The translations under genes and the position numbers were made by a program. The notes below the pieces were generated by a model. That model was not told the DNA's origin, made no database searches, and saw nothing but the letters and a program-made list of their open reading frames with translations. A stretch of DNA of 64,000 nucleotides from Minisyncoccota bacterium. GTDB taxonomy: Bacteria; Patescibacteriota; Minisyncoccia; Phycocordibacterales; Phycocordibacteraceae. The stretch is taken from NCBI GenBank assembly GCA_035548315.1, contig DASZTF010000010.1, positions 1,721-65,720 of the forward strand, in the 5' to 3' direction. Numbering within the stretch: the first letter of the stretch is position 1; each line of letters opens with the position of its first letter. Of this stretch, positions 1,739 to 63,225 are shown one piece after another.

Positions 1739-2029
1739 CTATGCACCAAACCGCTCGGCTCTGCCGGCGGTTCGTTTTTTAATAGCGTGTGGGAAAAGAG
1801 AAAAGCCTACTAACCATGACGGTGTTCGGCCTTCCAGGGTGACCCCGCACTAGCATGAGAACCGTCAAGAGTTGGTGCACCCTCAGCGACACCGCTCGAA
1901 CTTTTCGATTTGGTGGCTGGGCATATAGACACAATACAGCTATGGAATGAGGCGGTCAAAGAGTTTTTAGCCCAAGAGTCCTTGGGAAATACGCTGTCGG
2001 TTCGCCTCTGAAATTGGTAAAATACGACC

Positions 2030-2311
2030 ATGGAAAAGAAGGACGCCCTCACGGATTTGGTGGAGTTTGTCCAAGGGACAGTCTCGACAGGGTCCGCCGG
2101 GTCCGGCCAAGTAGTGAATTCCCAAGGCGAAATCATCACCTTGGGCCATCCCGGCAAGGAAAGTGTATCTCCTCGGAGTAAGAGTGTTCCTCTCGAACTG
2201 GATGTTAGGGAATTTCAAGAGAAAGTCTCGACTCGAGTGCAAAAGAAACTCCTTTCGCTAATCGGAACCGCAAAAACCCGCGTTATAGGCGCGAGAATCA
2301 AAGAATCGTAA
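2030..2311 (+). CDS. hypothetical protein (island)
   Basis: 93-aa ORF, low-GC island, ATG start, abuts next ORF. Confidence 0.35.
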   Translation: MEKKDALTDLVEFVQGTVSTGSAGSGQVVNSQGEIITLGHPGKESVSPRSKSVPLELDVREFQEKVSTRVQKKLLSLIGTAKTRVIGARIKES

Positions 2312-2724
2312 TGCACCTCGACCATCTACCGAAAATGCACAAGCCGGAGGAATTCAAGCGGTTTGGCGCGTTCATGGCACTACCGAAGGAGGAACGGATG
2401 CTCGTCTTTGGCTTTACAACCGAAAAGCAGTTCGCGGAGCATTTCAAGGTCAGACCGGCAACCCTATCGGAATGGAAGCAACGAGAGGACTTTTGGAGCG
2501 TCAGGGACGCCTATTTGGCCCCGTTTAGGGCACATACGGCCCAAGTGATAGAAGCCCTTGCGAAACGGGCAGAGCGCACTGGAGACGCTTATCAGGTACT
2601 CACCTTTCTCAAGGTCGTAGAGGGATTTTCAGACAAGGGAAATGCCTTTTCTCTGAAGCAGAGGAAGCCGCCCTTCCGGGTTGAAATCGTGCACAATTTA
2701 GACCAAGCGTGCGCCGCTACTTGA
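2311..2724 (+). CDS. hypothetical protein, possible HTH (island)
   Basis: 137-aa ORF; segment ...VRPATLSEWKQRED... resembles phage small HTH proteins; weak. Confidence 0.35.
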   Translation: MHLDHLPKMHKPEEFKRFGAFMALPKEERMLVFGFTTEKQFAEHFKVRPATLSEWKQREDFWSVRDAYLAPFRAHTAQVIEALAKRAERTGDAYQVLTFLKVVEGFSDKGNAFSLKQRKPPFRVEIVHNLDQACAAT

Positions 2725-4531
2725 AGTCGGCGACATCTCCGTATACCTCGAGGAAAAGAGGTGAGCCGGTGAAAGAGAGTGGGGAAATCGGTCCGAAGAA
2801 CATGAACGGGAATTTCCGATTACTGCTCGGGTCGATGAACGACTTGTAGAGCTGAATCGCTGATGGATTATTCACGAACTCGCTGACCTTTCGGAGCTCG
2901 GAACCAGAGGTTAGGCCGTAGCCGAAGCCGAAAATTCTCATCTGCCGCAAAATCTCATCATCCAAGGACTCGATGGTCTGTGTGATGAACATATAGCCAA
3001 TTCCATATTTTCGAGTCGTGCGTACTGAGCCGATGATTTCTTGGGTGAGCTCCTTGATGCGGGGGTCCTGCGAAGTTGTGGAGATGAATCGATGGGCTTC
3101 GTCCATGACGATAAGGCAGTTTGCCTTCTTTCCATCCGCATAGAGTTGAGCCCCGAGCTCGACGATTTTTGCCTCAATCGTTTTGATAAAGACTGCTTGG
3201 AGGTTTTCGTTTTGAATCTCGCCGACTTGAGTGCCACTGATGTCGAGCACGATAAAATTCCCGTTCTCCAACACAACTTTTTTGACGAGTTCTTCAACAG
3301 TGAGTTTGTTTGTCTGGTCCTCTCGATTCTTGGTAAAAAGCTCGAGCGCGTTTCCCCATTTGCGCGTGATATTGGTTTCAGAGGCCAAGTGGTCCCGAAC
3401 ATGCTCCAACCTGTTCTGGAGACGCGTGCGCGTTTGTGGAGTTCCAAATATCGATATTACATAGGAGGTGAATCCGTCGGCCGTCTCCCGAGGTCCGGTC
3501 GGGGTAATAAACCGATTCAGCAATTCTTGAAGAAGTGCGGTCTTATTGGTAATTGAATTGAGGTTGAACCCGGGGACATTGGCACGCCCGCGAAGATACT
3601 CGACAACCGCGTCTCGCGCGGCCTCGACCTTGTCCGGGGTGTAGAGAGGACGGAAGGCCAGCTCGAGGAAGCCGTTATTTGCGAGCAAGTCGCCCAACAG
3701 CTCAAAGTTATCGCCCGGAAGACAGATGTCTTTCAGTACCTCGTACTTTTCGTACTTCATCCCGGCTTTTGTGATGTGGTCCTCCAATTTCTGGTCCGGT
3801 GGTAGCAAGTCCTTATCGGCGAAAAATTGCCGTTGCGGGTCAAGTACCAAGATGCTCATATTGTTCTTGTTCTTTGCATAGCCGAGAAGCATATAGGCCG
3901 CGGAAACGGTCTTGCCGGACCCGGTCCTGCCGAAGACGCCGATGTGGTACGCATCGCCAGCGCCCGTTTCGTTGTTCTCCTCGTCTGTCTTATCGAAATG
4001 TTTGAACCAAAACGGCAAGTCGACATCTGTGCCATAAACTTTACCCATGTAGGTAATGTCGCCGTCATGTTTCTTCATCAAGGCGGTCATGACCTCGTTA
4101 TTCATTTTTTGCACGCGCTCGCCGGTGGATGGTGAGGTTCCCAAGATGTGCCCCTCGGGATTCTCGGTGCCCAAGTTGTAGCAGGCTTGGACGCTTATCG
4201 TGGCAACGCGGTTGTCGGCCGTGCCGCTCAAGTGTGGAAGGCGACCATGGCGCTTGATGACGCCCTTGAATGAAGGGTCCTCATGCCATCGATTTTGTGT
4301 CTCTATACCGATGATTTGCCCGATGACGAGGATGTTCTGCCCGTCCTCGTTCACGACCACATAGACCATCTGACCCAAAGCCCGCTCGGCTTTGCTTTTC
4401 TCGGAAATGTCGATGACTATGTCGAGCGTCGTGCTCGGCGAGCCGGTGATGCCGATGAGCGTATCATCCTGATTCTTTATGACTTCGAGAAGGCTCTCGG
4501 AGATGGTCGGGTTTTGCGGGTCGTTTGCCAT
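2717..4531 (-). CDS. HerA-like ATPase (FtsK-HerA superfamily, DUF87-type)
   Basis: 604 aa; Walker A GVFGRTGSGKTVS at ~aa 200 and Walker B LIVMDEAHRF (hhhhDEAH) at ~aa 470, the HerA spacing and motif style; low-GC island. Confidence 0.7.
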   Translation of the reverse strand: MANDPQNPTISESLLEVIKNQDDTLIGITGSPSTTLDIVIDISEKSKAERALGQMVYVVVNEDGQNILVIGQIIGIETQNRWHEDPSFKGVIKRHGRLPHLSGTADNRVATISVQACYNLGTENPEGHILGTSPSTGERVQKMNNEVMTALMKKHDGDITYMGKVYGTDVDLPFWFKHFDKTDEENNETGAGDAYHIGVFGRTGSGKTVSAAYMLLGYAKNKNNMSILVLDPQRQFFADKDLLPPDQKLEDHITKAGMKYEKYEVLKDICLPGDNFELLGDLLANNGFLELAFRPLYTPDKVEAARDAVVEYLRGRANVPGFNLNSITNKTALLQELLNRFITPTGPRETADGFTSYVISIFGTPQTRTRLQNRLEHVRDHLASETNITRKWGNALELFTKNREDQTNKLTVEELVKKVVLENGNFIVLDISGTQVGEIQNENLQAVFIKTIEAKIVELGAQLYADGKKANCLIVMDEAHRFISTTSQDPRIKELTQEIIGSVRTTRKYGIGYMFITQTIESLDDEILRQMRIFGFGYGLTSGSELRKVSEFVNNPSAIQLYKSFIDPSSNRKFPFMFFGPISPLSFTGSPLFLEVYGDVADFK

Positions 4532-4533
4532 GG

Positions 4534-5721
4534 TTAGGTTCGATAAGAGAATAATAGACCAAACTTCCCTTGGTCAATTTTTAGGTCGGGCGAGAGGCGG
4601 ATGGCGTCGATGATGGCGAACATGCCAGTCGAGATGCTTTTCGCCATAAGGTCCACGAGGTACTGCGGGTATGGCTCCCGTATCTCCGGGAAGATGATTT
4701 GCTTCTTCAAGCTCCCGAGATAGCGCTCGAGCTTCGCGGAGTCCGTCGCCACCGCCTTTTTCAACTCGACGCGATAAGCTGGCCCGTCCATATATGGCCG
4801 GTAATAAGTGTAGTAAAGCTCCGACTCCTTTCCTCCTTTCGTCGTTATGGGCGCGATGGCATTCTTGAGTGCCGTGTTGAGAGCGTCCTTTTCGGGGATA
4901 TCCAAACTGCAAGCGATGTGAAGTTCGTTCCATATTTTCTCCCGCTCCTGCTTACTCTGCCCGACCGAGTGCGGAACGAGATACTCGTCTTCCGCCAAGC
5001 CGAGCGAGAAAAAGGTCTTATCATCGAGCTTTATTTCGCAGTCAGAAAGGAAGGCGTCGATGATGTCGGTAGAGGAACTGTATTTCGCGAGGGCGATAAT
5101 ATGTTCGTTGTTCTGCGCCGCGGTGATGATGTCCGGGATATCAGGAATGATTTTCGAGTATGTCTCCCGCAAGAAGTCGCGGAGGGCGGCCGCGTATTCA
5201 GGACCCGCACCTTCTTCCTTAGCGGACAACATGCTGTTTATCTTGAGTATCGGAGTGAAATGCGTCCCGTCCATTATGCGAATTTCGTGGTCGTCGTTCG
5301 CCAAGACGCTGAGCTCCATTAGGAACATGACCCCCTGTATGAGCCGCGCGTTCGCTTCGCCATGAGGTAGAACAGTCTGCCATTGATAGTACTGATTCTT
5401 GTCGGCGCCCCACGCCGTATCCTTGTCTTCAGACAGACCTTCAACGCCCACGGCGACGGCAAGGAGGACATCGGCGCCCGCTAGCTTCTCCGGGATATTG
5501 CCGCCATCGACAGCAATCAATGAATGAGAAGGTTCTACATCGGAAAGCTTCTTGATTTTCCCGGCGGCACGCAATTTCTCCATGCCTTTCGCTATCGGTT
5601 CGTCCTGTATATCAAACAGGCCATTCATTTTGTCGACCGTGTTCGGCACGCTCTCAAGAATCTTGCCCAAGAGTTCATCGGGCAAATGGGCGTAATTCCG
5701 GCTTTCTCCCTGCGGTGGCAT
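4534..5721 (-). CDS. NurA-like nuclease (putative partner of HerA)
   Basis: 395 aa; N-terminal SLIAVDGGN motif resembles NurA motif I (catalytic Asp in hhhhDGS); 2-nt gap to the HerA-like gene; tentative. Confidence 0.4.
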   Translation of the reverse strand: MPPQGESRNYAHLPDELLGKILESVPNTVDKMNGLFDIQDEPIAKGMEKLRAAGKIKKLSDVEPSHSLIAVDGGNIPEKLAGADVLLAVAVGVEGLSEDKDTAWGADKNQYYQWQTVLPHGEANARLIQGVMFLMELSVLANDDHEIRIMDGTHFTPILKINSMLSAKEEGAGPEYAAALRDFLRETYSKIIPDIPDIITAAQNNEHIIALAKYSSSTDIIDAFLSDCEIKLDDKTFFSLGLAEDEYLVPHSVGQSKQEREKIWNELHIACSLDIPEKDALNTALKNAIAPITTKGGKESELYYTYYRPYMDGPAYRVELKKAVATDSAKLERYLGSLKKQIIFPEIREPYPQYLVDLMAKSISTGMFAIIDAIRLSPDLKIDQGKFGLLFSYRT

Positions 5722-5724
5722 AGG

Positions 5725-6882
5725 CTAAATGTTTTTTGCTAGTTCCTCACATCGCTCGAGGTCAGAGATGGCATTCTCGACTAAACGGGTCGTGTCGATG
5801 GTCCGGTATGTCGAGTCTTTCTCTGCGCGCGGTTTCGCCCATTTCTCCTTCCAAAACTCTGCTAGCTCGTCGACAGAACGCCGATGCCATTTAGGTCGCG
5901 CATTCTTCTGAATGACATCCTTTACATTGCTCGCAAGCGGAAACAAGTAGACCGCCCGTTCGATGCCGTGGCTTGTTCCGTTAGGGAATCCGAGAAGGTC
6001 GAGAGCTTGAAGTATCAAACGCATCTTGCGCGAAGGCCCATTCCCGAAGCCGCGGCCTACCTCGTATCCTTTTTGCTCCAAGAAAGCGACCAAGTCCTCA
6101 TAAAGCGCATTTGGAATATGGAAAGACCCGGTCCCCCGCGTATAGCCGATGAATCGGGCGACCTCTTGCTCGTTGAACTTCAATCGGGAATACACGGGGC
6201 TCTTGCCGTATGCGCCGGTCGTAGTGAGGAACAGGAGACGGGCCGGGAGCTCCCGATTTTTGAGGAGTGTCTTCTTGCCGCGGTATTTGTCGGCAAACTT
6301 CTTTCTCACAACCTCCGAAGTCATGAGAGAAGCAACGAGCTTCCCGCCCAAAATGTAGTTGTAGGGCGGTAGGGCGCCGAGTCGTTGAGCGCTAAGCGAT
6401 TGATTGACCCAAAAATCCCTTTCCTCTGCGGGAATGCCCAAATGCTCATCGCGGACGCTCCAACTAAGGATGGGGCTTTGCAAGCCGATAAGACCGATGG
6501 GGCTCTTGTGGTACTCGTCCCAAACGACGAACCGCATTTGCCGGCCGTAAGATTGTTCATACGGCAGGCTCCACCAAGTCAGGTTCCACCAACGGAAAAT
6601 TGTCTCCCACTTCGTCCCGGTCTGAACCTCTATAAGGCGCGGCTTGATTTTCTCAACCTCCAATTTCCTGCCGTTTATGAAATGTTCCTTGATAAGCGGA
6701 GCGTTCCTTTCAACAAAATCCCGATGGCGAACGAGTCGTTCGGCCTTTGCGAAACGATGCGCGTCTTTCTTTGCCTCCCGGTCGTCTTGCTTGAGCGTGA
6801 ATGTGCCGAGCCGGGTGCTGTATCCCTGCTTACGCAAGATGCTCAATACATCACGCTTCAGTCTTGTCGCAGTCAGGGCCAT
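5725..6882 (-). CDS. hypothetical protein, first gene of the X-NurA-HerA operon
   Basis: 385-aa ORF ending 4 nt before the NurA-like gene; Trp-rich segment KWETIFRWWNLTWWSLPY; no family recognised with confidence. Confidence 0.5.
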   Translation of the reverse strand: MALTATRLKRDVLSILRKQGYSTRLGTFTLKQDDREAKKDAHRFAKAERLVRHRDFVERNAPLIKEHFINGRKLEVEKIKPRLIEVQTGTKWETIFRWWNLTWWSLPYEQSYGRQMRFVVWDEYHKSPIGLIGLQSPILSWSVRDEHLGIPAEERDFWVNQSLSAQRLGALPPYNYILGGKLVASLMTSEVVRKKFADKYRGKKTLLKNRELPARLLFLTTTGAYGKSPVYSRLKFNEQEVARFIGYTRGTGSFHIPNALYEDLVAFLEQKGYEVGRGFGNGPSRKMRLILQALDLLGFPNGTSHGIERAVYLFPLASNVKDVIQKNARPKWHRRSVDELAEFWKEKWAKPRAEKDSTYRTIDTTRLVENAISDLERCEELAKNI

Positions 6883-6919
6883 GTGTCCAAATTATAGCGC
6901 GGGAGGTGCCCCGTGCCTT

Positions 6920-7141
6920 TTACCTAAGAAAGTAGTCGACACTCTTTCCATACATCTTCGCAAACCGCTTGAGCTCGACGACATCGACCCTCTGCTGACC
7001 TGTTTCGACATTCGAGATGTGCGATTGGGGCCTGTCGAGCTTCTTTGCGGCCTGAGTCTGCGTCAAGCCCGCTTCAAGGCGCGCCGTCTTGAGTCGTCCC
7101 ACAAAGACGGCGTACTCCTTCGTGTGGATTGACTTCTTCAT
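6920..7141 (-). CDS. XRE-family (Cro/CI-type) HTH transcriptional regulator
   Basis: 73 aa; LTQTQAAKKLDRPQSHISNVETGQQRVDVVELKRFAKMYG is a canonical XRE HTH. Confidence 0.8.
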   Translation of the reverse strand: MKKSIHTKEYAVFVGRLKTARLEAGLTQTQAAKKLDRPQSHISNVETGQQRVDVVELKRFAKMYGKSVDYFLR

Positions 7142-7167
7142 AGGATAAATGCTCTATCCAAGAAGTC

Positions 7168-7190
7168 AATATCCAAAATCTGGATATTGT
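7168..7190. promoter_or_regulatory. perfect palindrome caATATCCAaaatcTGGATATtg in divergent promoter region (candidate operator)
   Basis: 9-bp arms, 5-bp spacer, between divergently transcribed XRE gene and the zinc-ribbon/recombinase genes. Confidence 0.5.
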
Positions 7191-7204
7191 GATACGCTAA
7201 CTAT

Positions 7205-7489
7205 ATGGCTACGAAACAAATCCAATGCCCGAACTGCAAGGGCTTCAATACCACGAGTATTTCGCCTCGCGCCGTCGCACGGATGATTTCGGTCGGACTT
7301 ATCATTCTCGGCTCGGTTTTTTCAGTTTTCATCATCGGCCTCCTTATCGGGATACCGATGTTTCTCCTCGGGCTTGTCCTCCTCCTCGTTTCTTTCTTCC
7401 TGCCCGAAAATGGCCGGATGCGGTGCCGCCAATGCCACTTCGTCTTTATGGCCAATTCTCAGGGTGAGGCGGGTCAGAAGGTCCCCTAG
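7205..7489 (+). CDS. small membrane protein with zinc ribbon (CPNC...CRQC) and two TM helices
   Basis: 94 aa; CxxC pairs flank two hydrophobic helices. Confidence 0.45.
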   Translation: MATKQIQCPNCKGFNTTSISPRAVARMISVGLIILGSVFSVFIIGLLIGIPMFLLGLVLLLVSFFLPENGRMRCRQCHFVFMANSQGEAGQKVP

Positions 7490-7538
7490 AGTCCGTAGCA
7501 AAGCGTAATAAAATGGGGATACCGGGCCCGGTATTTCA

Positions 7539-9173
7539 ATGGCAGACCTCACCACCACAAAGGAGCTTTTCGATACCCTAAAGCGCTTCTACGACCCCAC
7601 GGACGCAGACAAGGCAAACAAGCCATTGCGGTATGTCATCTATGCTCGAAAGAGCACGGATGACAGCGATAAGCAGACTCGCTCCCTTGGCGACCAGATG
7701 AGCGAGTGCTTGGAGTTTGCCGACCGGCACAACCTCTTGCTTGGTCGTCCCGCGCAGATTCAGGAAGCTATTAGTGCGAAGGTGAGCGACAAACGACCCG
7801 GGTTCCGAAGAATGATTGAGGATATCAAGAAGGGTCAGTACGACGGGATTATTGCATGGCACCCCGACCGGCTCGCTCGCAATATGAAGGATGCCGGAGA
7901 AATCATCGACCTCCTCGATAAGGGAACGATTAGGGACCTGCAGTTCGTTAGCTTCAATTTCGATAACACGCCCTCCGGGAAAATGAGTCTCGGGATTCAA
8001 TTCGTGATGTCCAAGCAATATAGCGACCAACTTTCCGTGAATGTATCGCGCGGCATCAGTCATTCGATTGAAGATGCGGAGTATATCAATCGCCCCAAGC
8101 ATGGGTACTTCAAGGATGACCGCCAATATCTCCGCCCGGACGGCCGGAATCATGGCCTCATAAAGAGCGCTTTTCAGCTCCGCCGACAAGGACGCACATT
8201 CAAGCAAATTGCTGATTGGTTGAACTCTCAACACTACGAACGCGCTTATGTAGACGGCTCGCATAAGTCCTTCAATTGGCGTCCGCAAATGGTCCAAAGG
8301 ATATTGCGGGACCCGGCATACGCGGGTGTCGTCGCGTATGGCGAGGGCCATCTTGTTGACCTGACAGAGGCTTACGACTTCGTTCCGGCCGTATCGGTGG
8401 CAGAGTTTTTCGAGTTGAATAATCTCCGTGGCGGAAACAAAGAACTCGCCAAGCTTGCACGCTCGTACCGCAAGGGAGACTCCATAAAAGCCGACCTCAT
8501 GCGCGGCATGGTGTATTGCTCTGAATGCGGCGAGCCCCGTTCTGCCGGCATTACCCGCAAGAAAGAAAAGGGTGGGACCACAAATTATTTTTATTATCGA
8601 TGCGAGACTCCCGGTTGCAAGCTCCGAAATCGGTCTACTCGAGCAAAGGTAGTGGTAGATTTCGTGAAAGCATTTCTTAGCAAGAAGCCTTTTTCTTCCA
8701 AGAAGGCATACGAACATTACGCGGCTGAGATGAAGCGTATAGAAGCGATGCGTGCGGAGGACAGGCGTGCATTACTAAGGACCCTTCAAGGAAAGGAAAA
8801 ATCACTTGCCTCTAAGCGAGAGCGCATCAAAGAATTCATTATCGACGAACAGAACCATGAATTCAGGGACGGCTTCAAGGGCGACCTTCTCAAGGCAGAG
8901 AAGGAGCATGAGGAAGTGCAAGCCGAAATCAAAAAGCTAAAGACGGCAATCGAGGCCGAAAAGAGCGCTATCCTCCTGATGCCGGAATTTCTCGAACAAA
9001 TGGATAAAATCGCCCAGATTATAGCTTCCCCGAAGAACATGCAGGAGCTCGACTTCTGCATCAAAAAGATGTTCTCGAACTTTTCGGTAGACCAAAAAAG
9101 CGTAGTATCTGCAACGCTCTCCGAGCCGTTCGCCCGACTCAAGGACCCGAAAGTTGCTTTAGGTGCGCGGTGA
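7539..9173 (+). CDS. large serine recombinase (integrase)
   Basis: 544 aa; resolvase N-terminal motif YVIYARKSTDDSDKQTRSLGDQ (Ser nucleophile), recombinase domain, zinc ribbon CSECGEP...YYRCETPGC, C-terminal coiled coil. Confidence 0.85.
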   Translation: MADLTTTKELFDTLKRFYDPTDADKANKPLRYVIYARKSTDDSDKQTRSLGDQMSECLEFADRHNLLLGRPAQIQEAISAKVSDKRPGFRRMIEDIKKGQYDGIIAWHPDRLARNMKDAGEIIDLLDKGTIRDLQFVSFNFDNTPSGKMSLGIQFVMSKQYSDQLSVNVSRGISHSIEDAEYINRPKHGYFKDDRQYLRPDGRNHGLIKSAFQLRRQGRTFKQIADWLNSQHYERAYVDGSHKSFNWRPQMVQRILRDPAYAGVVAYGEGHLVDLTEAYDFVPAVSVAEFFELNNLRGGNKELAKLARSYRKGDSIKADLMRGMVYCSECGEPRSAGITRKKEKGGTTNYFYYRCETPGCKLRNRSTRAKVVVDFVKAFLSKKPFSSKKAYEHYAAEMKRIEAMRAEDRRALLRTLQGKEKSLASKRERIKEFIIDEQNHEFRDGFKGDLLKAEKEHEEVQAEIKKLKTAIEAEKSAILLMPEFLEQMDKIAQIIASPKNMQELDFCIKKMFSNFSVDQKSVVSATLSEPFARLKDPKVALGAR

Positions 9174-9236
9174 GGGACTTGAACCCCCGACCATCCCGGT
9201 GTAAACGGGGTGCTCTACCAACTGAGCTAACCGCGC
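9164..9236 (-). tRNA. tRNA-Val (anticodon TAC)
   Basis: 73-nt cloverleaf folded by hand: acceptor GCGCGGT/ACCGCGC, anticodon loop TTTACAC, T-loop TTCAAGT; 3' end overlaps recombinase stop. Confidence 0.85.
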
Positions 9237-9269
9237 AGTAATGAAGTTGTAGCACATTTCACCTCGTTG

Positions 9270-9351
9270 TGGGCATGGGGAGACTCGAACTCCCAAGGAT
9301 TGCTCCATACGCTTCTGAGACGTACGCGTATACCAATTCCGCCACATGCCC
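9270..9351 (-). tRNA. tRNA-Leu (anticodon CAG), class II with long variable arm
   Basis: acceptor GGGCATG/CATGCCC, D-arm GCGGAATTGGTATACGC, anticodon loop CTCAGAA, variable arm, T-loop TTCGAGT. Confidence 0.8.
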
Positions 9352-9384
9352 GTGCGTACACTCTATCGTTGTCTATTAAAAGAA

Positions 9385-9421
9385 GGAAGCTGGCAGCGCT
9401 ATGTTTTGCGCTACCAGCTTC
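9385..9421 (-). terminator. hairpin GAAGCTGGCAGCGC-loop-GCGCTACCAGCTTC followed on the minus strand by CTTCTTTT
   Basis: 14-bp stem with one mismatch after the cupin gene stop. Confidence 0.5.
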
Positions 9422-9434
9422 GCATCGCACTGAC

Positions 9435-9902
9435 TTAAAGGTAATGCGTGTCGTCCGGTGCGATGGGAGGTAAAGAGCCCACCGCCACGAGCAAGGGATC
9501 TCCCTTGGTTCCTGGAATCCGGCGGAACCCGTGAGGGACGCCGGGATCGAGAATGATCGTTTGGCCGAGGTGAAGGGGCAACCACAGGTTGGTATTTGAG
9601 AGGCTGAACAACCCCTCAAAGTTCTTGTTGCCGCCGATTACCTGAACCACCGACCCGCTGCGGGTGTGGTAGTGAGGTCTCACATTCTCGACCTGAAGGC
9701 ATTCGAACTCGACACCGTCGAGCAGAGTTGTCTGATGGACAAGAGGCGCTGCAGCGCGGACTTGCCGGTCGAAATTGCAGTAGAGAACACCTTCTTCTTC
9801 GTTCCAATCCTCAGTACCCTCGAAGATACCGATCGGGCTCGCGTCACGAACCTGTTGAAGCGCGAGTGCGATAACACTCGATTTACTCATCGCACGTTCC
9901 AT
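9435..9902 (-). CDS. cupin-domain protein
   Basis: 155 aa; HYHTRSG ... PHGF histidine pattern of cupin fold. Confidence 0.5.
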   Translation of the reverse strand: MERAMSKSSVIALALQQVRDASPIGIFEGTEDWNEEEGVLYCNFDRQVRAAAPLVHQTTLLDGVEFECLQVENVRPHYHTRSGSVVQVIGGNKNFEGLFSLSNTNLWLPLHLGQTIILDPGVPHGFRRIPGTKGDPLLVAVGSLPPIAPDDTHYL

Positions 9903-9949
9903 AAAGGACTCCTATCTTGGTACGGGAATACTATACTATAAATGCTACA

Positions 9950-11632
9950 TTAATCAAGAAGCAGTCGTGCGAGGCGTATGTCGGCGTACGAGGCCTTGCC
10001 GTGCAGGGCGGCGAATATGGTCTTGAGTGCCTTCGACTTCTTTTTCCGGAACATCGCCTGGATGTCATCCAAGTGAGGCGCATCGTCTGCGAGGTACAGC
10101 ACCTCGCTACGCTCCACGCGCCCGGCCTCGCGCAGCTGCTCCAAGTGGTCGATGATCGTCTCCGGCTTCACGCCGCGCTCGTCTGCCATTTCCCCAAGCG
10201 GCATCTGCTCGCGCACGAGCGCGAGGGTCGCGTCGATGGTCGGCACCTTCGGCGCGCTTTTCTCCGCGCGGCGCTTAGCTGCAAGCGCGAGGTTCTCGGT
10301 GCCGCCGATAGCGAGTACGAATCGCTTCTCCAGCTTCTTGCGCTCGTCTTCTCCCATGTCGTCGAATGCTGCCTCTGCGCCCGCGGACGCGGCGCGGAAC
10401 TCTCGGTCCTTCTTCGCGATTTCCGGATGCACCAAAAGCGCGCGGTCATTCATCCCGTAGAGCGAGAGGCCATCGAGCGTGCGCACGCGCGAGAGCGCGA
10501 CGTAGCCCTGGCCGTATTCAAATGCTGCGGAGAGGTCGACCGTCGCCGCGTCGAGCGACATGCCCTGGCTCTTATGCACGGTGATGGCCCACGCAAGCCG
10601 CAGCGGGACTTGGCTGATGGTCGCGAGCGTCCTGCCGCCGTCTTCCATCTTCCACTCCACTGGTTCTGCCACGATCTCCTCACCCGTGACGAGCTCGACG
10701 ATCGGATACTTGTGCACCGCAGAGAATCCGAGAACGCTGCCGAGCGTGCCATTGGCGTAGCGATTCATCGGATCGTTCTTGGTGAACATCACGCGCGCGC
10801 CTTCTTTGAGCACCAATGTCTCTGGCGAGAGGCAGCCGCGCTTGAGATTCTCGACCAAGTGCGCGGCGCCCTTGCTCGTCATGATGAATCGCTCGCTGCG
10901 ACCGTCGATCGCCGCAAGCGCGGCATCGTTCATGCGGTCGACCGATGCGTTGTGCGTATAGAGGCGCGTCACTGGCGCATGCACATCACCGTCCATCACC
11001 GCTTCCCCATCCACCTGACGACTCTCGAGCAGCGCACGGTGCTGCGCCGTCACCGCCTCCGCACGAATAGCGGAGAGGAGCGCGAGGAGCGCGCTGTCTT
11101 CTTGGCGGTGCTGCTCGCTCAAGTAGCAGACCAGGGGATTCGCTGCTTTCCACGCATCCGCGTCGAATGCGAATGCTGCGCGGTGACTCTCGCGCGATAT
11201 CGGTGGCAGCTGAAAAAAGTCTCCGACGAACACCACCTGGAGTCCGCCGAATGGCCGCTCCGGGTTGCGGATCGCACGGCACACCTCCTCTACCATATCG
11301 AGCGTGTTCGCCGAGAGCATCGAAATCTCATCGATGATTAAAATGTGCGCAGACCGGACACGTTTGTTCACACGCTCGTTGTTCTGGATGCGGTCGAGGT
11401 CGTATGGCGTGAGCTGTTCGAGCACGCCAATCCCACTCCACGCGTGAATCGTCATGCCGCCGATGTGGGTCGCGGCGATGCCTGTGGAAGCCGTGATAGC
11501 AGGTTCGACTCCACGCTCGTGGAGCCATTTTACGTAGGCGTTTACCGTGTGCGTCTTGCCGCTCCCCGGCTCACCCGTGAGAAAGACATTCGCGCCGGTG
11601 GTGAGAATGGCGAGCGCTTCCCGTTGCGTCAT
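9950..11632 (-). CDS. RecD/PIF1-family ATP-dependent DNA helicase with C-terminal HTH
   Basis: 560 aa; Walker A FLTGEPGSGKTH, Walker B LIIDEISM, RecD-like C-terminal region. Confidence 0.75.
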   Translation of the reverse strand: MTQREALAILTTGANVFLTGEPGSGKTHTVNAYVKWLHERGVEPAITASTGIAATHIGGMTIHAWSGIGVLEQLTPYDLDRIQNNERVNKRVRSAHILIIDEISMLSANTLDMVEEVCRAIRNPERPFGGLQVVFVGDFFQLPPISRESHRAAFAFDADAWKAANPLVCYLSEQHRQEDSALLALLSAIRAEAVTAQHRALLESRQVDGEAVMDGDVHAPVTRLYTHNASVDRMNDAALAAIDGRSERFIMTSKGAAHLVENLKRGCLSPETLVLKEGARVMFTKNDPMNRYANGTLGSVLGFSAVHKYPIVELVTGEEIVAEPVEWKMEDGGRTLATISQVPLRLAWAITVHKSQGMSLDAATVDLSAAFEYGQGYVALSRVRTLDGLSLYGMNDRALLVHPEIAKKDREFRAASAGAEAAFDDMGEDERKKLEKRFVLAIGGTENLALAAKRRAEKSAPKVPTIDATLALVREQMPLGEMADERGVKPETIIDHLEQLREAGRVERSEVLYLADDAPHLDDIQAMFRKKKSKALKTIFAALHGKASYADIRLARLLLD

Positions 11633-11663
11633 CTCACTAGTGTACCAACTACTCTAAAATAGG

Positions 11664-14253: not shown

Positions 14254-14664
14254 TTAGTGTGCGCTCGTGCCCGGGGGAACCGGTCGATCGGGCGTAAGAA
14301 AGGCGAAGGTGTCGTCGTGTCCCACGGCAAAGAGCATGCCATTACTTTCGATGCCCTTGATCATGCGCGGCGCGAGGTTCGTGACATACGCAAACTGGTG
14401 CCCGACGAGCGACTCTGGCTCGGGCACGTACGCGGCGATACCCGAGACGATGGTGCGCGGCCCCGCTACTTCACCAAAGTCGACCGTGCACTTGATGAGC
14501 TTGTCCGTCTCCGGCACGCGCTCGGCGGCCTTCACGGTACCCACTTTCACTTCCACCTTTGCGAACTCGTCGATGGAAATCTTTGGTTCCGTCTTGGGCT
14601 CGGCCGTTGGCCCCTCTTCTTTCACTTCCCCTGCTGCCGGTACCGGATGCTGATCGTCAATCAT
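14254..14664 (-). CDS. tRNA-binding domain protein (CsaA/Trbp111/MetRS-C-like)
   Basis: 136 aa; FAKVEVKVGTVKAAERVPETDKLIKCTVDFGE...IVSGIAAY pattern of EMAP/tRNA-binding OB fold. Confidence 0.65.
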   Translation of the reverse strand: MIDDQHPVPAAGEVKEEGPTAEPKTEPKISIDEFAKVEVKVGTVKAAERVPETDKLIKCTVDFGEVAGPRTIVSGIAAYVPEPESLVGHQFAYVTNLAPRMIKGIESNGMLFAVGHDDTFAFLTPDRPVPPGTSAH

Positions 14665-15091
14665 GTTTTTTACTTAAATAGCTCGTAAGGATGAGTGCGG
14701 CGGCAGAGGCGTCGACGGCATCAGTGCTTTTCGGACTTCTGCCGGTAACCGACTCATCGCGCGCGCGGCGTGCCTCGGCACTCGTAAACATTTCTGGTTC
14801 ATAGTAAACCGGAACTTTTGCTTCATTCATTATGAACGTACCCAGCAACCGAGCAGCGTTAGCTATCGCATTGTCATTTCCTGCGAGATCCTTTGACTCT
14901 CCCATAACGACTGCGCCGACATTCTCACTCTTAATTATAAGGACGAGTTTGTCATAGAGCCCCGTATCATTTGGAATAATTTTATAAGGGAATCCCATGC
15001 TGCCGCCCTCGTCCGAGAGGGCGAGGCCGCATTTCCTGGTGCCGTAATCGATGCCGAGGTAGCGCATCCCCCTATGGTATACTCCCGGCAT
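14657..15091 (-). CDS. ruvX: YqgF/RuvX Holliday-junction-resolvase-like (pre-16S rRNA nuclease)
   Basis: 144 aa; LGIDYGTRKCGLALSD N-terminus typical of YqgF. Confidence 0.8.
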   Translation of the reverse strand: MPGVYHRGMRYLGIDYGTRKCGLALSDEGGSMGFPYKIIPNDTGLYDKLVLIIKSENVGAVVMGESKDLAGNDNAIANAARLLGTFIMNEAKVPVYYEPEMFTSAEARRARDESVTGRSPKSTDAVDASAAALILTSYLSKKHD

Positions 15092-15440
15092 GTATCATCC
15101 AATCGACGCAGGCATGTTTGGGTTCGGCCAGTTCGGTGCACTCTTCGGCGCGGGCTTTGCCGTATTCCTACTCGTCGCACTTATCTGGACGCTTCTATGG
15201 AAGGGTCTCGCGCTTTGGCACGCGGCACGCAGCGGTCAGTGGGTGTGGTTCATTGTGTTTCTTATCGTGAACACTGCCGGCATCCTCGAGATCGTATACC
15301 TGATCTGGTTCCGCGGAGACAAAAATAGCGAGAACCTCTTCCCCTTTGGTGCGGCACCGCAGCCGGTTACCCCAGCTACTACGGTGGTGGAAGAGGTCGT
15401 CGTCGTAGAAACGTCGTCAGACGATTCAGCGGCGGCGTAA
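15090..15440 (+). CDS. hypothetical small membrane protein
   Basis: 116 aa, three hydrophobic helices. Confidence 0.4.
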   Translation: MYHPIDAGMFGFGQFGALFGAGFAVFLLVALIWTLLWKGLALWHAARSGQWVWFIVFLIVNTAGILEIVYLIWFRGDKNSENLFPFGAAPQPVTPATTVVEEVVVVETSSDDSAAA

Positions 15441-15445
15441 GTGCG

Positions 15446-15530
15446 GGAGGAGTCGCATAGTGGTTTAGTGCACCGGTCTTGAAAACCGGAGTGTCGCAAG
15501 GCACCGCGAGTTCGAATCTCGCCTCCTCCG
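15446..15530 (+). tRNA. tRNA-Ser (anticodon TGA), class II
   Basis: acceptor GGAGGAG/CTCCTCC, anticodon stem-loop CCGGT-CTTGAAA-ACCGG, long variable arm, T-loop TTCGAAT. Confidence 0.85.
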
Positions 15531-15560
15531 CTTGTAGTGGTGGTATGATATTGCATAGGT

Positions 15561-58866: not shown

Positions 58867-59220
58867 TCATACAGACTCCGGCAGTGCATTTTCGAGTTCG
58901 GGTGTGGTGGGATCAAGGATGGCGCGACAATAGTCGAGGATTTTTTTCGGACACGTGTGCGGTCCGTAGCGGAATGCTGCGAAGGTTTCGTAGCTGTTTC
59001 CAAATCCTGCAGCGACAAACACTGCGACATCATCCATGTCCCGCTCTTCTTTCATGCGATTGAAGATCCCGAGAACCATTGTTCCGGTGAATTGCTCTTC
59101 CTGCGTAAGTGGTGGCTTGGGCCACGGAAACTGCGAACGGAAGATTTCCACTCGTTGGTATCGGAGCATGGCTTTTGAGCTGAGAAGAGCAGCTCGGTGC
59201 GTGTCAGCAACTGCTTCCAT
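58867..59220 (-). CDS. hypothetical protein
   Basis: ORF from MEAVADTHRAALL; start chosen to avoid overlap with the neighbouring small ORF. Confidence 0.3.
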   Translation of the reverse strand: MEAVADTHRAALLSSKAMLRYQRVEIFRSQFPWPKPPLTQEEQFTGTMVLGIFNRMKEERDMDDVAVFVAAGFGNSYETFAAFRYGPHTCPKKILDYCRAILDPTTPELENALPESV

Positions 59221-59270
59221 AGCGCACCTCCTTTCTGCAGTAGTAAACCACCGATATCTGCGGTGGGTTA

Positions 59271-59453
59271 CTAGCGCCGGCGTTTCCGCCCGCTCCCCGA
59301 CTTCTTCCCACCACCGCTTTCTTTGTTCACGGTCGCCCACGCGCGGCGCTCGGCTTCTTTCTTGCTGGTGCCGCGCTTTTCATATCCTTCTTCAATATGT
59401 TCTGCCTCACGCTTCTGCTTGTCGGTATATTTTGATTTGCTTCCTCGTGCCAT
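59271..59453 (-). CDS. small Lys/Glu-rich hypothetical protein
   Basis: 60 aa, MARGSKSKYTDKQKREAEHIEEGYEKRGTSKKEAERRAWATVNKESGGGKK; composition typical of small stress-type proteins. Confidence 0.35.
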   Translation of the reverse strand: MARGSKSKYTDKQKREAEHIEEGYEKRGTSKKEAERRAWATVNKESGGGKKSGSGRKRRR

Positions 59454-59539
59454 ACGTGAAAGTTAGTAGGTAATGAAACTCACGTAAGTATCGTTTCTAC
59501 GGGGTGAAAAATAAGTGAGCGTTCTGGTATCATGCGCGC

Positions 59540-60334
59540 ATGCGTATCGCTTCCTGGAATGTGAACGGCATCCGCGCCGTGCACCGCAAGGGTCTCTTTG
59601 TGCCGTTCGTACATAAAGTAAAGCCAGACATTATCTGTCTCCAGGAGACCAAGGCAAAAGAAGATCAGTCAGAAGTCGACCTCCCCGACTACCACGAGTA
59701 CTGGAATTCTGCAGAGAAAGCTGGCTACAGCGGCACCGCGATTTTCTCTAAAGAAGAGGCGCTCGATGTGCGTCTCGGGCTCCCCGATGACCTCGCGGAG
59801 AAGTACGGCCTCCATACCGATTCGTATGGCGACCCCAACTCCGAGGGCCGCGTGATCACTGCGGAATATGAAGATTTCTTCGTCGTGAGTGCGTACACGC
59901 CAAACGCCAAGCCCGACCTATCTCGCCTCTCGCTCCGCCACACGCAGTGGGATCCAGCGTTCCTTGAATATATGAAGCGCTTGGAAGAAGATAAGCCGGT
60001 GGTGTTCTGTGGCGATCTCAACGTCGCGCATATGGAAGACGACCTCGCGAACCCTAAATCCAATAAAGGCGAACACGGGTTCACCGATGAAGAGCGCGAG
60101 GGCATCGACCTCATACTCGGTGCCGGATTCGTGGACACCTTCCGCCTCTTTCACCAGGGCAAGGGTTTCTATACCTGGTGGAGCCACTTCGGCCATGCGC
60201 GCGAGCGCAACGTGGGCTGGCGCATCGACTACATATTCGTGAGCAAGGCGCTCAAGAATAAAGTAAAGAAAGCAGCAATCTACCCCGACCTCCTCGGCTC
60301 CGACCACTGCCCTGTCTCTGCGGATATTGCCTAA
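59540..60334 (+). CDS. xth: exodeoxyribonuclease III (AP endonuclease)
   Basis: 264 aa; MRIASWNVNGIRA start and conserved SDHCPV C-terminus. Confidence 0.9.
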   Translation: MRIASWNVNGIRAVHRKGLFVPFVHKVKPDIICLQETKAKEDQSEVDLPDYHEYWNSAEKAGYSGTAIFSKEEALDVRLGLPDDLAEKYGLHTDSYGDPNSEGRVITAEYEDFFVVSAYTPNAKPDLSRLSLRHTQWDPAFLEYMKRLEEDKPVVFCGDLNVAHMEDDLANPKSNKGEHGFTDEEREGIDLILGAGFVDTFRLFHQGKGFYTWWSHFGHARERNVGWRIDYIFVSKALKNKVKKAAIYPDLLGSDHCPVSADIA

Positions 60335-61146
60335 GACTTAACCCGCGCTAAGCGCGCGTCGAATATTGTATCCTCGGCTAGCGCCAATGTTTCAACGGTG
60401 CTGAATCCAGCAGATCGTAGTGAAGATTCAAGCTCCGGGAATGTGAGATCGTAGGATACATTCGGTGTCGCCAAAATAGTTCCATCTTCTTGCTCGCGCA
60501 CCATCGATGCGTTGCGTATTTTCTGTTCGGGGAGTCGCTCGGTCCAGAAGATAAGTTTTTGCTTCCCTTCGCCTGGTGCCGTTATTTCCGCTACTTGGTC
60601 TCGATGGGAATGTTCCTCATCTTTAAATTTGTCGATGTACAGGAGACCACCAGGCCTGAGTAGTTTTTTAAATATATCGGCCGTTTCAGCATAGGTAGCA
60701 AGTGCTGTAGCTGGATCAATGGAAATGTCGCTATTCCAGCCCCCAAGTGCGTATACGAACGAGTTGCCGCGGCACAAAATTAAATCGTATGAGTTCGATT
60801 CGTATGCCGAAAGCAAATCTTTCCAGAGAACTTGTTTTGCCACAGAAGAAAGACCCCGCTCAGTCGCGCGCCTGTTGTACAGAGCCACTTCGTCCGCGAA
60901 TCCATCAGAGCTCTCTACGTTGTAACCCCGCTTTATAAGTTCAAGAGACGGGAATCCGCCGCCTGCGGCGACGTCGAGTATCTTTGAATCTTTGGTAATA
61001 CCGTTTGCGGCGAATACGGTTTCAAGCTCGTCACAATATGCGCGCTCATTATAGAGAAATTTATATACACACATCTCCCACAACTCAGCGAATGTGGGTT
61101 TGTGATCGAAGCGCTCAATATTTTTATGATTTGGTATTGATTCCAT
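60331..61146 (-). CDS. class I SAM-dependent methyltransferase
   Basis: 271 aa; SAM motif I ILDVAAGGGFPSLEL. Confidence 0.8.
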   Translation of the reverse strand: MESIPNHKNIERFDHKPTFAELWEMCVYKFLYNERAYCDELETVFAANGITKDSKILDVAAGGGFPSLELIKRGYNVESSDGFADEVALYNRRATERGLSSVAKQVLWKDLLSAYESNSYDLILCRGNSFVYALGGWNSDISIDPATALATYAETADIFKKLLRPGGLLYIDKFKDEEHSHRDQVAEITAPGEGKQKLIFWTERLPEQKIRNASMVREQEDGTILATPNVSYDLTFPELESSLRSAGFSTVETLALAEDTIFDARLARVKS

Positions 61147-61154
61147 AAGGATTT

Positions 61155-61228
61155 ACTCGATGAGGCCTCGAATTGCTTCAAGCTCTCAATAGAGGGGAGA
61201 AGTCTCACCTTCCCCCAGATTCAGCCGC
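61155..61228 (-). repeat. hairpin-containing intergenic element, copy A (ctcgatgagg ... ctcaat-agaggggagaag-tctcac-cttccccc-ag)
   Basis: shares the ctcgatgagg box and a GGGGAGAAG/CTTCTCCC hairpin with copy B. Confidence 0.5.
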
Positions 61229-61559
61229 CTTTCTCTGTGTGACGAACATGTTTACCACGAACAGCAGGTTCCTCTTGCTGTCTGCCCCGGTTGCGCCCGC
61301 TTCGATGGCGTGCCGATTTTTCGCGGCATCATCCGACAAGAAGTAAACCGGAGGGAGCATTTTGCTTTGCGCCCGCCACTCCTGCAACACTTTCGGCGAG
61401 GCTAGTGCACCGTCGAGGATGACGAAGTCAAAGCAGTCCTTCCCAAGCGCCTTAGCAGCCTCCTCGGTTGTGGGCACATATATCGCTTGGTCGCAGTCCC
61501 GAAGAAACATGTTGAACGCGCATTTACTGCAGTTAGAATCGAGGACTAGTAGTTTCATG
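61205..61559 (-). CDS. single-domain receiver (CheY-like) protein
   Basis: 118 aa from MKLLVLD; conserved acidic positions (LVLDSN, FVILDG); upstream in-frame codons belong to the conserved leader. Confidence 0.45.
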
Positions 61560-61596
61560 ATGGCCTCCCAGGCGTTGGTTTGAAAGATCAATTTCT

Positions 61597-61675
61597 CGAT
61601 GAGGATTCCATTCGTAAGAATCGTCTCCTCAATGAAGGGGAGAAGTTTTAGCTTCTCCCAGTTTGATAGTTTCTT
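61597..61675 (-). repeat. hairpin-containing intergenic element, copy B (ctcgatgagg ... ctcaat-gaaggggagaag-ttttag-cttctccc-ag)
   Basis: perfect 8-bp stem GGGAGAAG/CTTCTCCC; same flanking boxes as copy A. Confidence 0.5.
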
Positions 61676-61700
61676 TCGGCGGGATATCAGCCCGCTCCAC

Positions 61701-62270: not shown

Positions 62271-62339
62271 GGTAGTGCCCTCCTTGGGCGGTGGCGGCGA
62301 AGCGCCGGTTTCAGTGGACTTGATTTCTGCTATAAGTAT

Positions 62340-62410
62340 AGCTTAATCATACATAATGTCAAGTATTAATGATGATGAAATATTGACAAGAAACGTATGA
62401 AAATATAGAG
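62340..62410. promoter_or_regulatory. divergent sigma70-type promoters (minus: TTGACA-N16-TATACT plus GGAGG SD; plus: TTGACA-N16-TATAGA)
   Basis: AT-rich 150-bp divergent region; consensus -35 hexamers on both strands. Confidence 0.4.
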
Positions 62411-62422
62411 TATTTTGCATAG

Positions 62423-63193: not shown

Positions 63194-63225
63194 AGGACAC
63201 TTATGCACAGGGCGTGTCCTTTACA
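63194..63225 (+). terminator. hairpin AGGACAC-loop-GTGTCCT followed by TTTAC
   Basis: 7-bp stem with 12-nt loop directly after the TrmB-like gene; weak T-tract. Confidence 0.35.

Follow-up and report, generated by a model that had tools for sequence, protein, structure and literature searches.

Organization of the island at the tRNA-Val gene

The window analyzed here is a stretch of 64,000 nucleotides of contig DASZTF010000010.1 (GCA_035548315.1), from a member of Candidatus Paceibacterota in the Candidate Phyla Radiation (CPR)/Patescibacteria. It contains an integrative island of 7,288 bp at ~1875–9164, which was delimited by comparison of the left and right attachment sites (attL and attR) and by the start of homology to related elements. 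At the right end, the gene for a large serine recombinase (LSR) of 544 aa (int; 7539–9173, + strand) ran into the target gene, tRNA-Val(TAC) (9162–9236, − strand), at its 3′ end, and tRNA-Leu(cag) lay beyond it (9269–9351, − strand; both called by ARAGORN). An earlier note on this DNA had reported the recombinase, its last three codons and stop within the tRNA (an overlap of 12 nt) and the tRNA-Leu, and had proposed a tRNA-targeting integrative element. All of this was borne out, and the integrase adjoining the tRNA 3′ end is the recombinase of that element. At the left end, attL was followed by a detached 3′ exon of int (1874–2011, + strand). Very probably, insertion was carried out by the LSR of the island itself, at the outermost 3′ end of the tRNA-Val(UAC) gene.

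The GC content of the island, computed over 1877–9165, was 52.2% vs. 58.0% for the remainder of the window, and none of 237 other 7.3-kb windows fell below 55.3%. Along the window, the GC profile dropped from 0.58–0.63 to 0.49–0.55 over ~1.8–9.9 kb. The tetranucleotide distance to the window average was maximal at 2.5–10 kb (0.29–0.31) and amounted to 0.12–0.19 in 20 of 22 other chunks; the two exceptions overlapped the left end (0.22) and the right end (0.13) of the island. Thus, both compositional checks proposed in the earlier note singled out the island region. The GC drop it had described was real, but its size (62% to 50%) was slightly overstated, as the immediate flanks had 58–63%. Foreign composition was combined with variable content at a conserved site, as expected of an integrative island.

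The recombinase family and its tRNA targets

The catalytic domain of the LSR was recognized as Pfam Resolvase (1.6e-22), and residues R37, S39, R111, and R114 were invariant in 28 homologues. It was followed by a recombinase domain (Pfam Recombinase, 1.7e-10) and a four-cysteine zinc ribbon with an inserted coiled coil. The Zn_ribbon_recom score of 24.0 bits was slightly below the cut-off of 25.3, and C327, C330, C355, and C360 were invariant in the 28-protein alignment. The RKS(39)T motif and WHPDRLARN were invariant in alignment A1. The nearest solved structure was SPbeta SprA (E=2e-11), and the PHROG integrase match reached 1e-68. In an AlphaFold2 model of an uninterrupted homologue, P0088 (P-numbers denote proteins), the body had a mean predicted local distance difference test (pLDDT) value of 79, and the coiled coil formed a helical hairpin at 379–464. 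More than 2,400 relatives were found at E<=1e-20, and those with names all belonged to Patescibacteria. No tyrosine recombinase domain (Pfam Phage_integrase) was present in any ORF (open reading frame) of the island.

The stop codon of int (TGA, 9171–9173) lay inside the tRNA-Val 3′ end, and the final codons, GGT GCG CGG TGA (residues 542–544, G-A-R, and the stop), were the reverse complement of the tRNA ...TCACCGCGCACC 3′ end. In the 28-protein alignment, the conserved body closed at ...LSEPFxxLxDxKVxx, after which translations of antisense tRNA made up the tails, e.g., GAR-stop, GARCRTRTCDLLSVNELLYQLS with a stop, and GGRGGTRTPNPF.... In most of the best 120 homologues, the C-termini were likewise antisense-tRNA peptides (GAR-stop, GARCRTRTCD..., GGRGGTRTP...).

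All nine genome loci with 41–51% identical recombinases (Saccharibacteria, Paceibacteria, and others) had an ORF running convergently into a tRNA 3′ end and stopping 13–56 nt inside it; the targets were Val-tac (four), Leu-tag (two), Leu-cag, Pro-tgg, and Pro-ggg. The same arrangement was found in 38 of the 93 fetched loci (9 genome and 29 metagenome), with the stop 12–69 nt inside the tRNA. This set reached down to ~28–43% identity and involved tRNAs for Pro, Gly, Val, Glu, Leu, Ser, Tyr, Trp, Gln, Lys, and Asn. The recurrence across the family indicated that the overlap is not a matter of chance. One of the fetched loci (labeled L-numbers below), L099, also encoded a second large serine recombinase (2617–4653; called 678 aa) that read through a convergent tRNA-Leu(gag) at 4218–4300. 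This genome therefore contains two such elements, at different tRNAs.

The earlier note called an integrase beside a tRNA 3′ end a classic signature. That is true of tyrosine integrases, but a 2020 paper called it “not reported previously” for large serine integrases (PMC7192596). That study described the use of t(m)RNA genes in 14/297 S-Int islands as previously unreported, said that proof was needed, and asked why tyrosine rather than serine integrases favor tRNA genes (Mageeney et al., 2020).

Attachment sites and the position of exchange

The contexts of the closest relatives (71–77% identity) were fetched and compared by blastn. The window shared only two stretches with them: int, and a block starting at 1871–1875 (1875–2065 with L095 4178–4368, 78%; 1872–1976 with L099 6394–6498, 82%; 1871–1977 with L002 4803–4909, 78%). 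This block was also common to L097 and L099. The host genes to the left of it were different in each case: MarR (window), a 412-aa gene plus TsaD (L095), UppS-RluD (L099), RplS (L097), and ArgRS (L002). On the right, int was followed by tRNA-Val throughout, as a decayed copy in L002. Since homology started at the block while the left flanks differed, the block start was taken as the left end of the element, attL. The earlier note had set the left boundary at ~1790 by composition; it lies at 1875/1876. It had also dismissed a segment at 1875–1905 as weakly similar to the tRNA 3′ end: the similarity exists, but the segment is the true attL.

As stated there, no exact direct repeat of the tRNA 3′ end was present, and only GGTGC was common to attL (1874–1878, + strand) and attR (9162–9166, + strand). 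The probable crossover dinucleotide GT lies at 1875–1876 in attL and at 9163–9164 in attR, where it corresponds to C74/A73 of the tRNA. The common cores were GGTGC in the window, TTGGTGCACC in L099, GTGCGC in L095, GTGC in L097, and CAATTGGTCGG in L005, and their length was 4–11 bp in six elements. The common cores of serine integrases are only a few bp long, e.g., 5–8 bp in Int-S prophages of Mycobacterium abscessus (PMC8092301), and it is because of this shortness that no repeat had been noticed before. A direct-repeat search with the tRNA 3′ half gave just 8–12-nt matches at chance level; the 11-mer of L005 was real, and those of L008 and L009 were not.

Host DNA lay to the left of attL and included TGG, the original CCA end of tRNA-Val (1873–1875). 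The rebuilt host site attB (...GAGTTGGTGCGCGGTGAGGG...; predicted junction ...GAACCGTCAAGAGTTGGTGCGCGGTGAGGGACTTGAACC... from joining the host flanks) gave a tRNA-Val with a perfect ...GCACCA end, and joining of the element ends gave the predicted junction of the element site attP, ...AAAGTTGCTTTAGGTGCACCCTCAGCGACACCGCTCGAAC.... The integrated gene reads ...GCACC-T instead of ...GCACCA, and the P arm supplies ...TTTAG. Integration thus leaves the tRNA body (nucleotides 1–73) host-derived, with only C74–A76 and the trailer becoming element DNA.

In the window and L097, 7/7 positions of the 3′ acceptor strand at attR paired with the host 5′ strand; the corresponding attL sequence (GCACCCT in the window, GCTCTTA in L097) failed to pair with it. 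The attL nucleotides to the right of GTGC are therefore element DNA rather than a displaced host tRNA end. As attL and attR differ to the left of the core and the right side of attL is element-derived, the exchange is placed within (G)GTGC. GT was present at attR in 12/12 integrated elements; at attL it was present in 11/12 and replaced by GG in the degenerate element of L002. The candidate GT core was conserved at both ends, but the cleavage position cannot be read from sequence; GT is most likely the central dinucleotide, TG is possible, and GC would be palindromic. We also considered an exchange deeper in the tRNA, at the acceptor/T-stem junction or in the T-loop, by which the element would supply the tRNA 3′ strand. 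This would suit the tRNA-like P′ arm (GCACCCT-CAG...CTCGAAC), the likeness of attL and attR over ~20 nt in L099, and the midpoint of AAAAGTTGC and CGAACTTTT in the reconstructed attP, which lies ~6–9 nt to the right of GT. However, the one-sided pairing in the window and L097, together with an attL–attR identity that extends no further than GTGC in L097 and GGTGC in the window, made it very unlikely.

The right half-sites shared a further feature. CTTGAAC, the T-loop motif within tRNA-Val (9178–9184), lay at +14..+20 from GT in the B′ half-site, and CTCGAAC (1895–1901, + strand) lay at +19..+25 in the P′ half-site. In 12/12 elements, CTYGAAC occupied these two positions, 5 bp further out in P′. 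For LSRs, the motif recognized by the zinc ribbon is 5 bp nearer the center in attB than in attP half-sites (Rutherford, 2013; PMC3783163), and the right half-sites, though the right side only, obey this rule exactly.

Directly before the tRNA end, in the P arm inside int, an inverted repeat of 5 bp spaced by 7 nt (GAGAC-N7-GTCTC or GATAC-N7-GTATC) was observed in L007 (11598–11614), L008 (6886–6902), and L003 (11573–11589), and in weaker form in the window (9140–9156). It showed compensatory changes between loci and encoded [DE]T..[KN]VS; a binding site and a hairpin of the new tRNA 3′ trailer are both conceivable.

The split integrase gene and its detached tail

When the 3′ end of int was joined to attL across the rebuilt attP, the frame remained open for 45 more codons, ...KVAL-GAPSATPLELFDLVAGHIDTIQLWNEAVKEFLAQESLGNTLSVRL, and closed with a stop at 2009–2011. 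The corresponding joins in L095, L099, L002, and L005 likewise left the frame open for exactly 45 codons. A profile of the tail matched the window with E=2e-22, ending exactly on the stop codon. Against the six-frame translations of all loci, it gave one match per element, always ending at a stop, in 12 integrated elements and in the contig L101. In the 12 integrated elements (E 1e-17 to 1e-24), the match lay upstream of int and on the same strand. The consensus was GAxxxTPLELFDxxxxxxxxIQxWNExVxxFLAxERxxxxLxVxL followed by the stop, and the length was 45 codons, or 47 in L017. The GT of attR fell on codon positions 2–3 of int in 12/12 elements, and the first tail codon at attL was xGT in 11/12 and GGG in L002. 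A looser scan revealed LLELF-type tails in L019 and L020 (37–39% identity), and candidates without LLELF in L034 and, with greater doubt, L033 and L038; tRNA-Pro was the site in each of the five loci. The tail had no family match.

These results showed that attP lies inside the int ORF, 45 codons before its stop, and that integration exchanges the C-terminus of the enzyme for GAR and a stop. Excision would rebuild an integrase of 586 aa, compared with 544 aa in the integrated state; all recognized domains remain in the shorter allele. Differences among five tails were distributed over codon positions 1/2/3 as 97/65/171, and the tails of L097 and L002 differed by 16 synonymous-only vs. 5 replacement codons. 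The third-position bias indicated that the detached tail is under coding selection, though it is apart from int in all these genomes.

Within the Saccharibacteria subclade, position 5 of the detached tail is a Met (GAGCMSPLELFD...), and ORFs of 41 aa have been annotated at this place by gene callers (L006 6170, L007 3525, and L008 1067; proteins P0131, P0135, and P0136). This tail might exist as a free micro-protein in the integrated state.

The tail swap may be a neutral by-product: attP has to mimic the tRNA 3′ region and fell in the end of int, with no role in control. The integrated enzymes tolerate arbitrary antisense-tRNA tails of 3–22 residues, AlphaFold2 gave no confident structure or docking for the tail, and the lack of a family match also fits. 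However, the tail length, the stop position and LELF...WN(E/D)...F(L/M) were kept between integrases only ~43–50% identical, LLELF-type tails reached down to the 37–39% level, and the substitutions were third-position biased. A dispensable appendix is not expected to be so constant, and we regard the neutral explanation as doubtful, though well worth keeping in mind.

Turnover at the locus and an apparently episomal relative

Outside the element, the window, L097, and L099 were syntenic, with RplS to the one side and, to the opposite side, tRNA-Val, tRNA-Arg(tct), pilus genes, and tRNA-Ser. The three elements measured 7,288, ~4,709, and 5,216 bp, carried unrelated cargo and had only int and the left-end module in common. 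This is the pattern of a mobile cassette turning over at one site. The earlier note had held that the same genes at this locus in related strains would speak against an island; as L097 and L099 hold different cargo at the same tRNA-Val, this comparison came out for mobility.

Among the best 120 homologues, P0088 (577 aa) was the one protein in which the tail was uninterrupted. Its contig, L101 (Logan), had 4,929 bp and identical 30-nt ends (k-1, k=31), with no tRNA, and encoded int, the small ORF described below and an OLD/AriA-like ATPase. We read it as a 4.9-kb circular episome or excision product. A tail-profile search for further episomal integrases returned only 16 short ORFs called at attL, the word index probably limiting its sensitivity.

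The locus L002, where int is followed by a tRNA-like stretch with no tRNA called, was considered as a free attP form and rejected: it is chromosomal (ArgRS, Tmk, SHMT, ThyA, NusG, and L11) and has its own attL at 4806. It is an integrated fossil beside a decayed tRNA-Val. At its attR (11618–11660), the int ORF enters GGTGCGCCCTGTAGAAGTCGAAC..., a degenerate tRNA-Val 3′ half missed by ARAGORN, and the int frame is then open for 846 codons over an antisense gene. Another contig, L001 (Logan SRR12170511), identical to the window, ended at window position 9191, exactly 30 nt past the last element-specific base, A9161. Such an end is the behavior of a k=31 graph where a path meets sequence that a different molecule shares, e.g., a second tRNA-Val, an unoccupied site, or a related species; L001 was unbroken at its left junction.

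A different explanation for the whole locus is that the island was inserted once and is now immobile, its tail-less integrase being inactive as after the “suicidal” integration of SSV-type elements. SSV-type integrases are inactivated by integration (PMC7253208), all three syntenic genomes are occupied, no empty site or circle was found for this element, and L002 offers an example of decay, with GT changed to GG at attL and attR beside a degenerate tRNA remnant. Against this, int in the window has its full length and retains every catalytic and Cys residue, the GT is unaltered in both cores, and the loss concerns only 45 of 586 residues, none of them in a recognized domain. The detached tail keeps its 45-codon frame and stop, and the coding constraint on the tails needs recurrent reconstitution of the gene. 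Moreover, the cargo is wholly different among the syntenic relatives, and an apparently circular relative exists. A fixed fossil is therefore improbable, and the reading of a mobile, LSR-inserted island was retained.

Backbone and cargo genes

Directly after the tail stop, a −10-like box, TAAAAT (2018–2023, + strand), lay 6 nt upstream of the next ATG; a promoter function is presumed. A TAnAAT box followed the tail stop in 10/13 elements, counting GATAGAAT in L003, and none was seen in L006, L007, and L008. The next gene is a small backbone ORF of 93 aa with the pattern MxKKDxLTDxVE...QVVxxxGExITLG (2030–2311, + strand). It was found directly after the tail in 12/13 elements, being absent in L007, and showed 41–44% identity to L095/L097 by tblastn. 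It had no Pfam, PHROG, or PADLOC match; from its position and size, one might guess at a directionality factor or regulator. The second backbone gene (2311–2724, + strand) encodes a 137-aa protein with a weak helix-turn-helix (HTH) signature (Pfam HTH_Tnp_1_2, E=0.006, sub-threshold) and was homologous to the ORF that takes its place in L004 (32% over 79 aa, E=2e-8).

The cargo comprised an operon on the − strand, headed by an XRE-family HTH regulator of 73 aa (6920–7141; Pfam HTH_31/HTH_3 ~1e-12; also PADLOC capH/control-protein-like) and followed by three genes on which the earlier note was silent. These encode a DruA/DUF4338 protein of 385 aa (5725–6882; Pfam DruA 2e-62, PADLOC DruA 3e-90), a NurA-like nuclease of 395 aa (4534–5721; Pfam NurA 4.9e-8, above cut-off), and a HerA-like ATPase of 604 aa (2717–4531; Pfam DUF87/HerA 8e-11, PADLOC mad8 3e-15 and HerA 1.5e-11). 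A divergent control region (7128–7189) contained two perfect palindromes, ATTGACTTCTT/AAGAAGTCAAT of 11 nt (7128–7138/7160–7170) and CAATATCCA-N5-TGGATATTG of 9 nt (7167–7175/7181–7189), and a promoter-like site on the minus strand (7169–7142). On the other side, a 94-aa CxxC...CxxC protein with a hydrophobic core (7205–7489, + strand) had only sub-threshold Pfam matches. The XRE repressor gene named in the earlier note was thus confirmed. Its palindromic operator was present as perfect palindromes with a presumed operator role, and its zinc-ribbon membrane protein is plausible from the CxxC pairs and the hydrophobic core but not proven, as the Pfam zinc-ribbon match was below threshold. A further perfect palindrome of 16 bp, ATACCGGGCCCGGTAT, was observed at 7519–7534, 4 nt upstream of the int start codon; it is a possible int operator or terminator of the preceding CxxC gene.

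Across the family, the cargo was varied and included OLD/AriA ATPase, Mrr-like nuclease, PDC-S13, SPFH protein, amino-acid permease, and LD-carboxypeptidase. On the metagenome contig L080 (130–9225, − strand), DruA and NurA (61 and 66% identical to those of the window) were adjacent and were preceded by XRE, a DrmD-like PLD-SNF2 helicase and a restriction-modification enzyme of type IIG; an LSR with 32% identity was located 7.5 kb away. This neighborhood places the XRE-DruA-NurA-HerA operon in a defense context, and the cargo is probably an anti-phage or anti-plasmid system by association. The DruA-NurA-HerA trio is not a system in PADLOC-DB v2, and no description of it was found in the literature searched. 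As in Druantia type I, there is a DruA, which matched the PADLOC DruA at 3e-90, but of DruA–E only DruA matched; DruB–E were absent, and DruA was coupled to NurA and HerA behind XRE. The helicase-nuclease pair resembles that of archaeal end resection and of HerA-containing defense systems.

The island could instead be what remains of a prophage or of a phage satellite. An LSR is a typical integrase for a phage, as the PHROG match recalls, the XRE repressor and palindromes resemble an immunity region, and two 35–37% identical relatives were located on IMG/VR contigs beside tRNA-Gly. However, the nine ORFs of the island included no capsid, terminase, portal, tail, or replication genes, and none for structure, packaging, or lysis in general. 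The relatives were 3.3–9 kb long with the same minimal backbone and varied non-phage cargo, and the episomal relative had 4.9 kb. A phage origin of this kind is thus highly improbable, and the island is better read as a self-contained element. The small ORFs of the island had no PHROG match, and DruA had no relatives in IMG/VR.

Other features of the window

Between tRNA-Leu(cag) and tRNA-Arg(tct) there was a 2.3-kb block (9352–11661) with a 155-aa ORF (9435–9902; GC ~0.54, no family match) and a PIF1-family helicase (9950–11632; GC 0.62–0.64), to which a PIF1 on the IMG/VR contig L108 was 48% identical. Since the corresponding two tRNAs are 24 nt apart in the syntenic L099, this block is an insertion. 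A second stretch of lower GC content (0.51–0.54) at 59000–64000 encoded an exonuclease III-like protein (59540–60334), a methyltransferase (60331–61146), and a TrmB-type regulator (62423–63193). At the window edge, the C-terminal domain of tRNA nucleotidyltransferase was matched weakly and below threshold by 63547–63993 (− strand); if this is a CCA-adding enzyme, it would repair the ...ACC-T end at tRNA-Val. A short GC dip (0.52–0.54) at 14500–15250, directly upstream of tRNA-Ser(tga) (15446–15531), had no recombinase or tail match.

Proposed mechanism

By analogy with the LSR literature, an LSR dimer on attP and another on attB would form a synapse and exchange strands with a 2-bp stagger. 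The LSR would catalyze attP × attB recombination, and activity of the truncated 544-aa enzyme is putative. Insertion would detach the 45-aa tail at attL and leave an allele closing with three antisense-tRNA codons. Excision would need altered interactions of the coiled coil, usually brought about in LSRs by a directionality factor. The zinc-ribbon domain may read the universally conserved T-loop, and the recombinase domain may read the acceptor stem and so set the choice of tRNA; a universal motif of this kind would explain the spread of the family over many tRNA species.

Furthermore, we speculated that the tail might be a built-in state sensor. The 586-aa form would favor attP × attB, and the 544-aa form would permit attL × attR, alone or with the 93-aa ORF, in combination with T-loop reading by the zinc ribbon. 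This proposal is tentative, and we hold it to be rather unlikely as it stands. The least supported step of the scheme is that the tail swap alters the direction, activity, or stability of the integrase between states, which is again rather doubtful.

Several observations weigh against the account given here. No empty site was found for the island: in a set of 5.8 billion proteins, the MarR flank protein matched only itself, which left no close relative without the island for comparison, and no exact record was found for the PIF1 flank protein. Neither was an attP junction of this element found. The excised circle was seen solely as L101, a 48% identical relative, and the circularity of L101 rests solely on its k-1 terminal overlap. 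The position of exchange is bracketed to 4–5 bp and not pinned. No mirror-image CTYGAAC was present at the expected distance in the P and B arms; P lies within the ...DPKVxx codons and B is the T-rich tRNA trailer, and the symmetry of the site thus falls short of that of textbook LSR sites. In the P0088 model, the pLDDT of the tail was 31–46. Finally, the defense role of the cargo rests on association, and NurA has no PADLOC model.

Comparison with known systems

The LSRs of phages and integrative and conjugative elements (A118/LI, SPbeta SprA, Bxb1, phiC31, and TP901-1) have the same domain order, i.e., serine catalytic domain, recombinase domain, and zinc ribbon with an inserted coiled coil. 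They also share the short core, the 5-bp offset of the motif between attP and attB, and the position of int beside the attachment site. However, they target protein genes or intergenic DNA, whereas the present clade targets the exact 3′ end of tRNA genes, has its attP in the integrase ORF and has left half-sites that are not obviously symmetric. The sequence relationship to SprA is remote (E=2e-11). In the Tycheposon-like elements of Prochlorococcus, a minority carries LSRs (bioRxiv 10.1101/2020.12.28.424599).

The SSV-type tyrosine integrases (SSV1, pT26-2) likewise have attP in the ORF, a tRNA target and a gene partitioned by insertion (PMC7253208), and in the present element attP also falls inside the integrase ORF. 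They are, however, tyrosine recombinases from archaeal viruses and plasmids, split into two inactive pseudogenes, whereas the bacterial serine enzyme loses only a 45-aa tail and keeps all recognized domains in its 544-aa integrated allele. The tyrosine-integrase islands detected by Islander/TIGER resemble the present one in the tRNA 3′ end site, int beside the tRNA, foreign composition, accessory or defense cargo, and preserved tRNA function. Here, in contrast, there was no tyrosine integrase, no direct repeat of tens of bp and no displaced tRNA fragment, and the tRNA body was not rebuilt: the repeat measured only 5 bp, and the tRNA-like stretch at attL was coding element DNA.

In the integration-dependent immunity of mycobacteriophages (BPs, Brujita, and M. 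abscessus prophages), attP lies in a coding sequence whose C-terminus is replaced (PMC8092301). The gene there is the repressor and the recombinase is a tyrosine enzyme, while here it is the serine integrase itself. Engineered fusions of integrases with recombination directionality factors showed that a C-terminal appendage can set the direction of an LSR (PMC5737554; SprA-SprB fusion structures 9dxd). Those fusions are artificial, whereas the present tail is natural and unrelated in sequence, and is present in the state that needs integration, not excision. No papers were found on CPR/Patescibacteria serine recombinases at tRNAs or on DUF4338 with HerA/NurA; the coverage was incomplete, and a prior description is possible.

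Implications for the family

The island is ordinary in kind, but it belongs to a widespread and apparently undescribed LSR variant that caps tRNA genes and is remodeled by integration. The family provides a large, coherent natural set of LSRs using tRNA genes and makes the question of serine integrases and tRNAs testable, as one half-site is the conserved T-arm. With its attP-spanning ORF, the serine integrase is the bacterial equivalent, without the suicidal outcome, of the SSV-type arrangement in archaea. If the tail is indeed a sensor, these elements control integration and excision by remodeling the recombinase through its own reaction; if the T-loop is read as proposed, the choice of target could be re-set via the acceptor-stem contacts. 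As LSRs are genome-engineering tools, a universal motif with varied tRNA specificities could aid genetics in CPR/Patescibacteria, for which few tools exist. The findings also suggest that these small-genome bacteria exchange defense genes on cassettes of 3–9 kb, including the DruA-NurA-HerA combination, for which we found no prior description.

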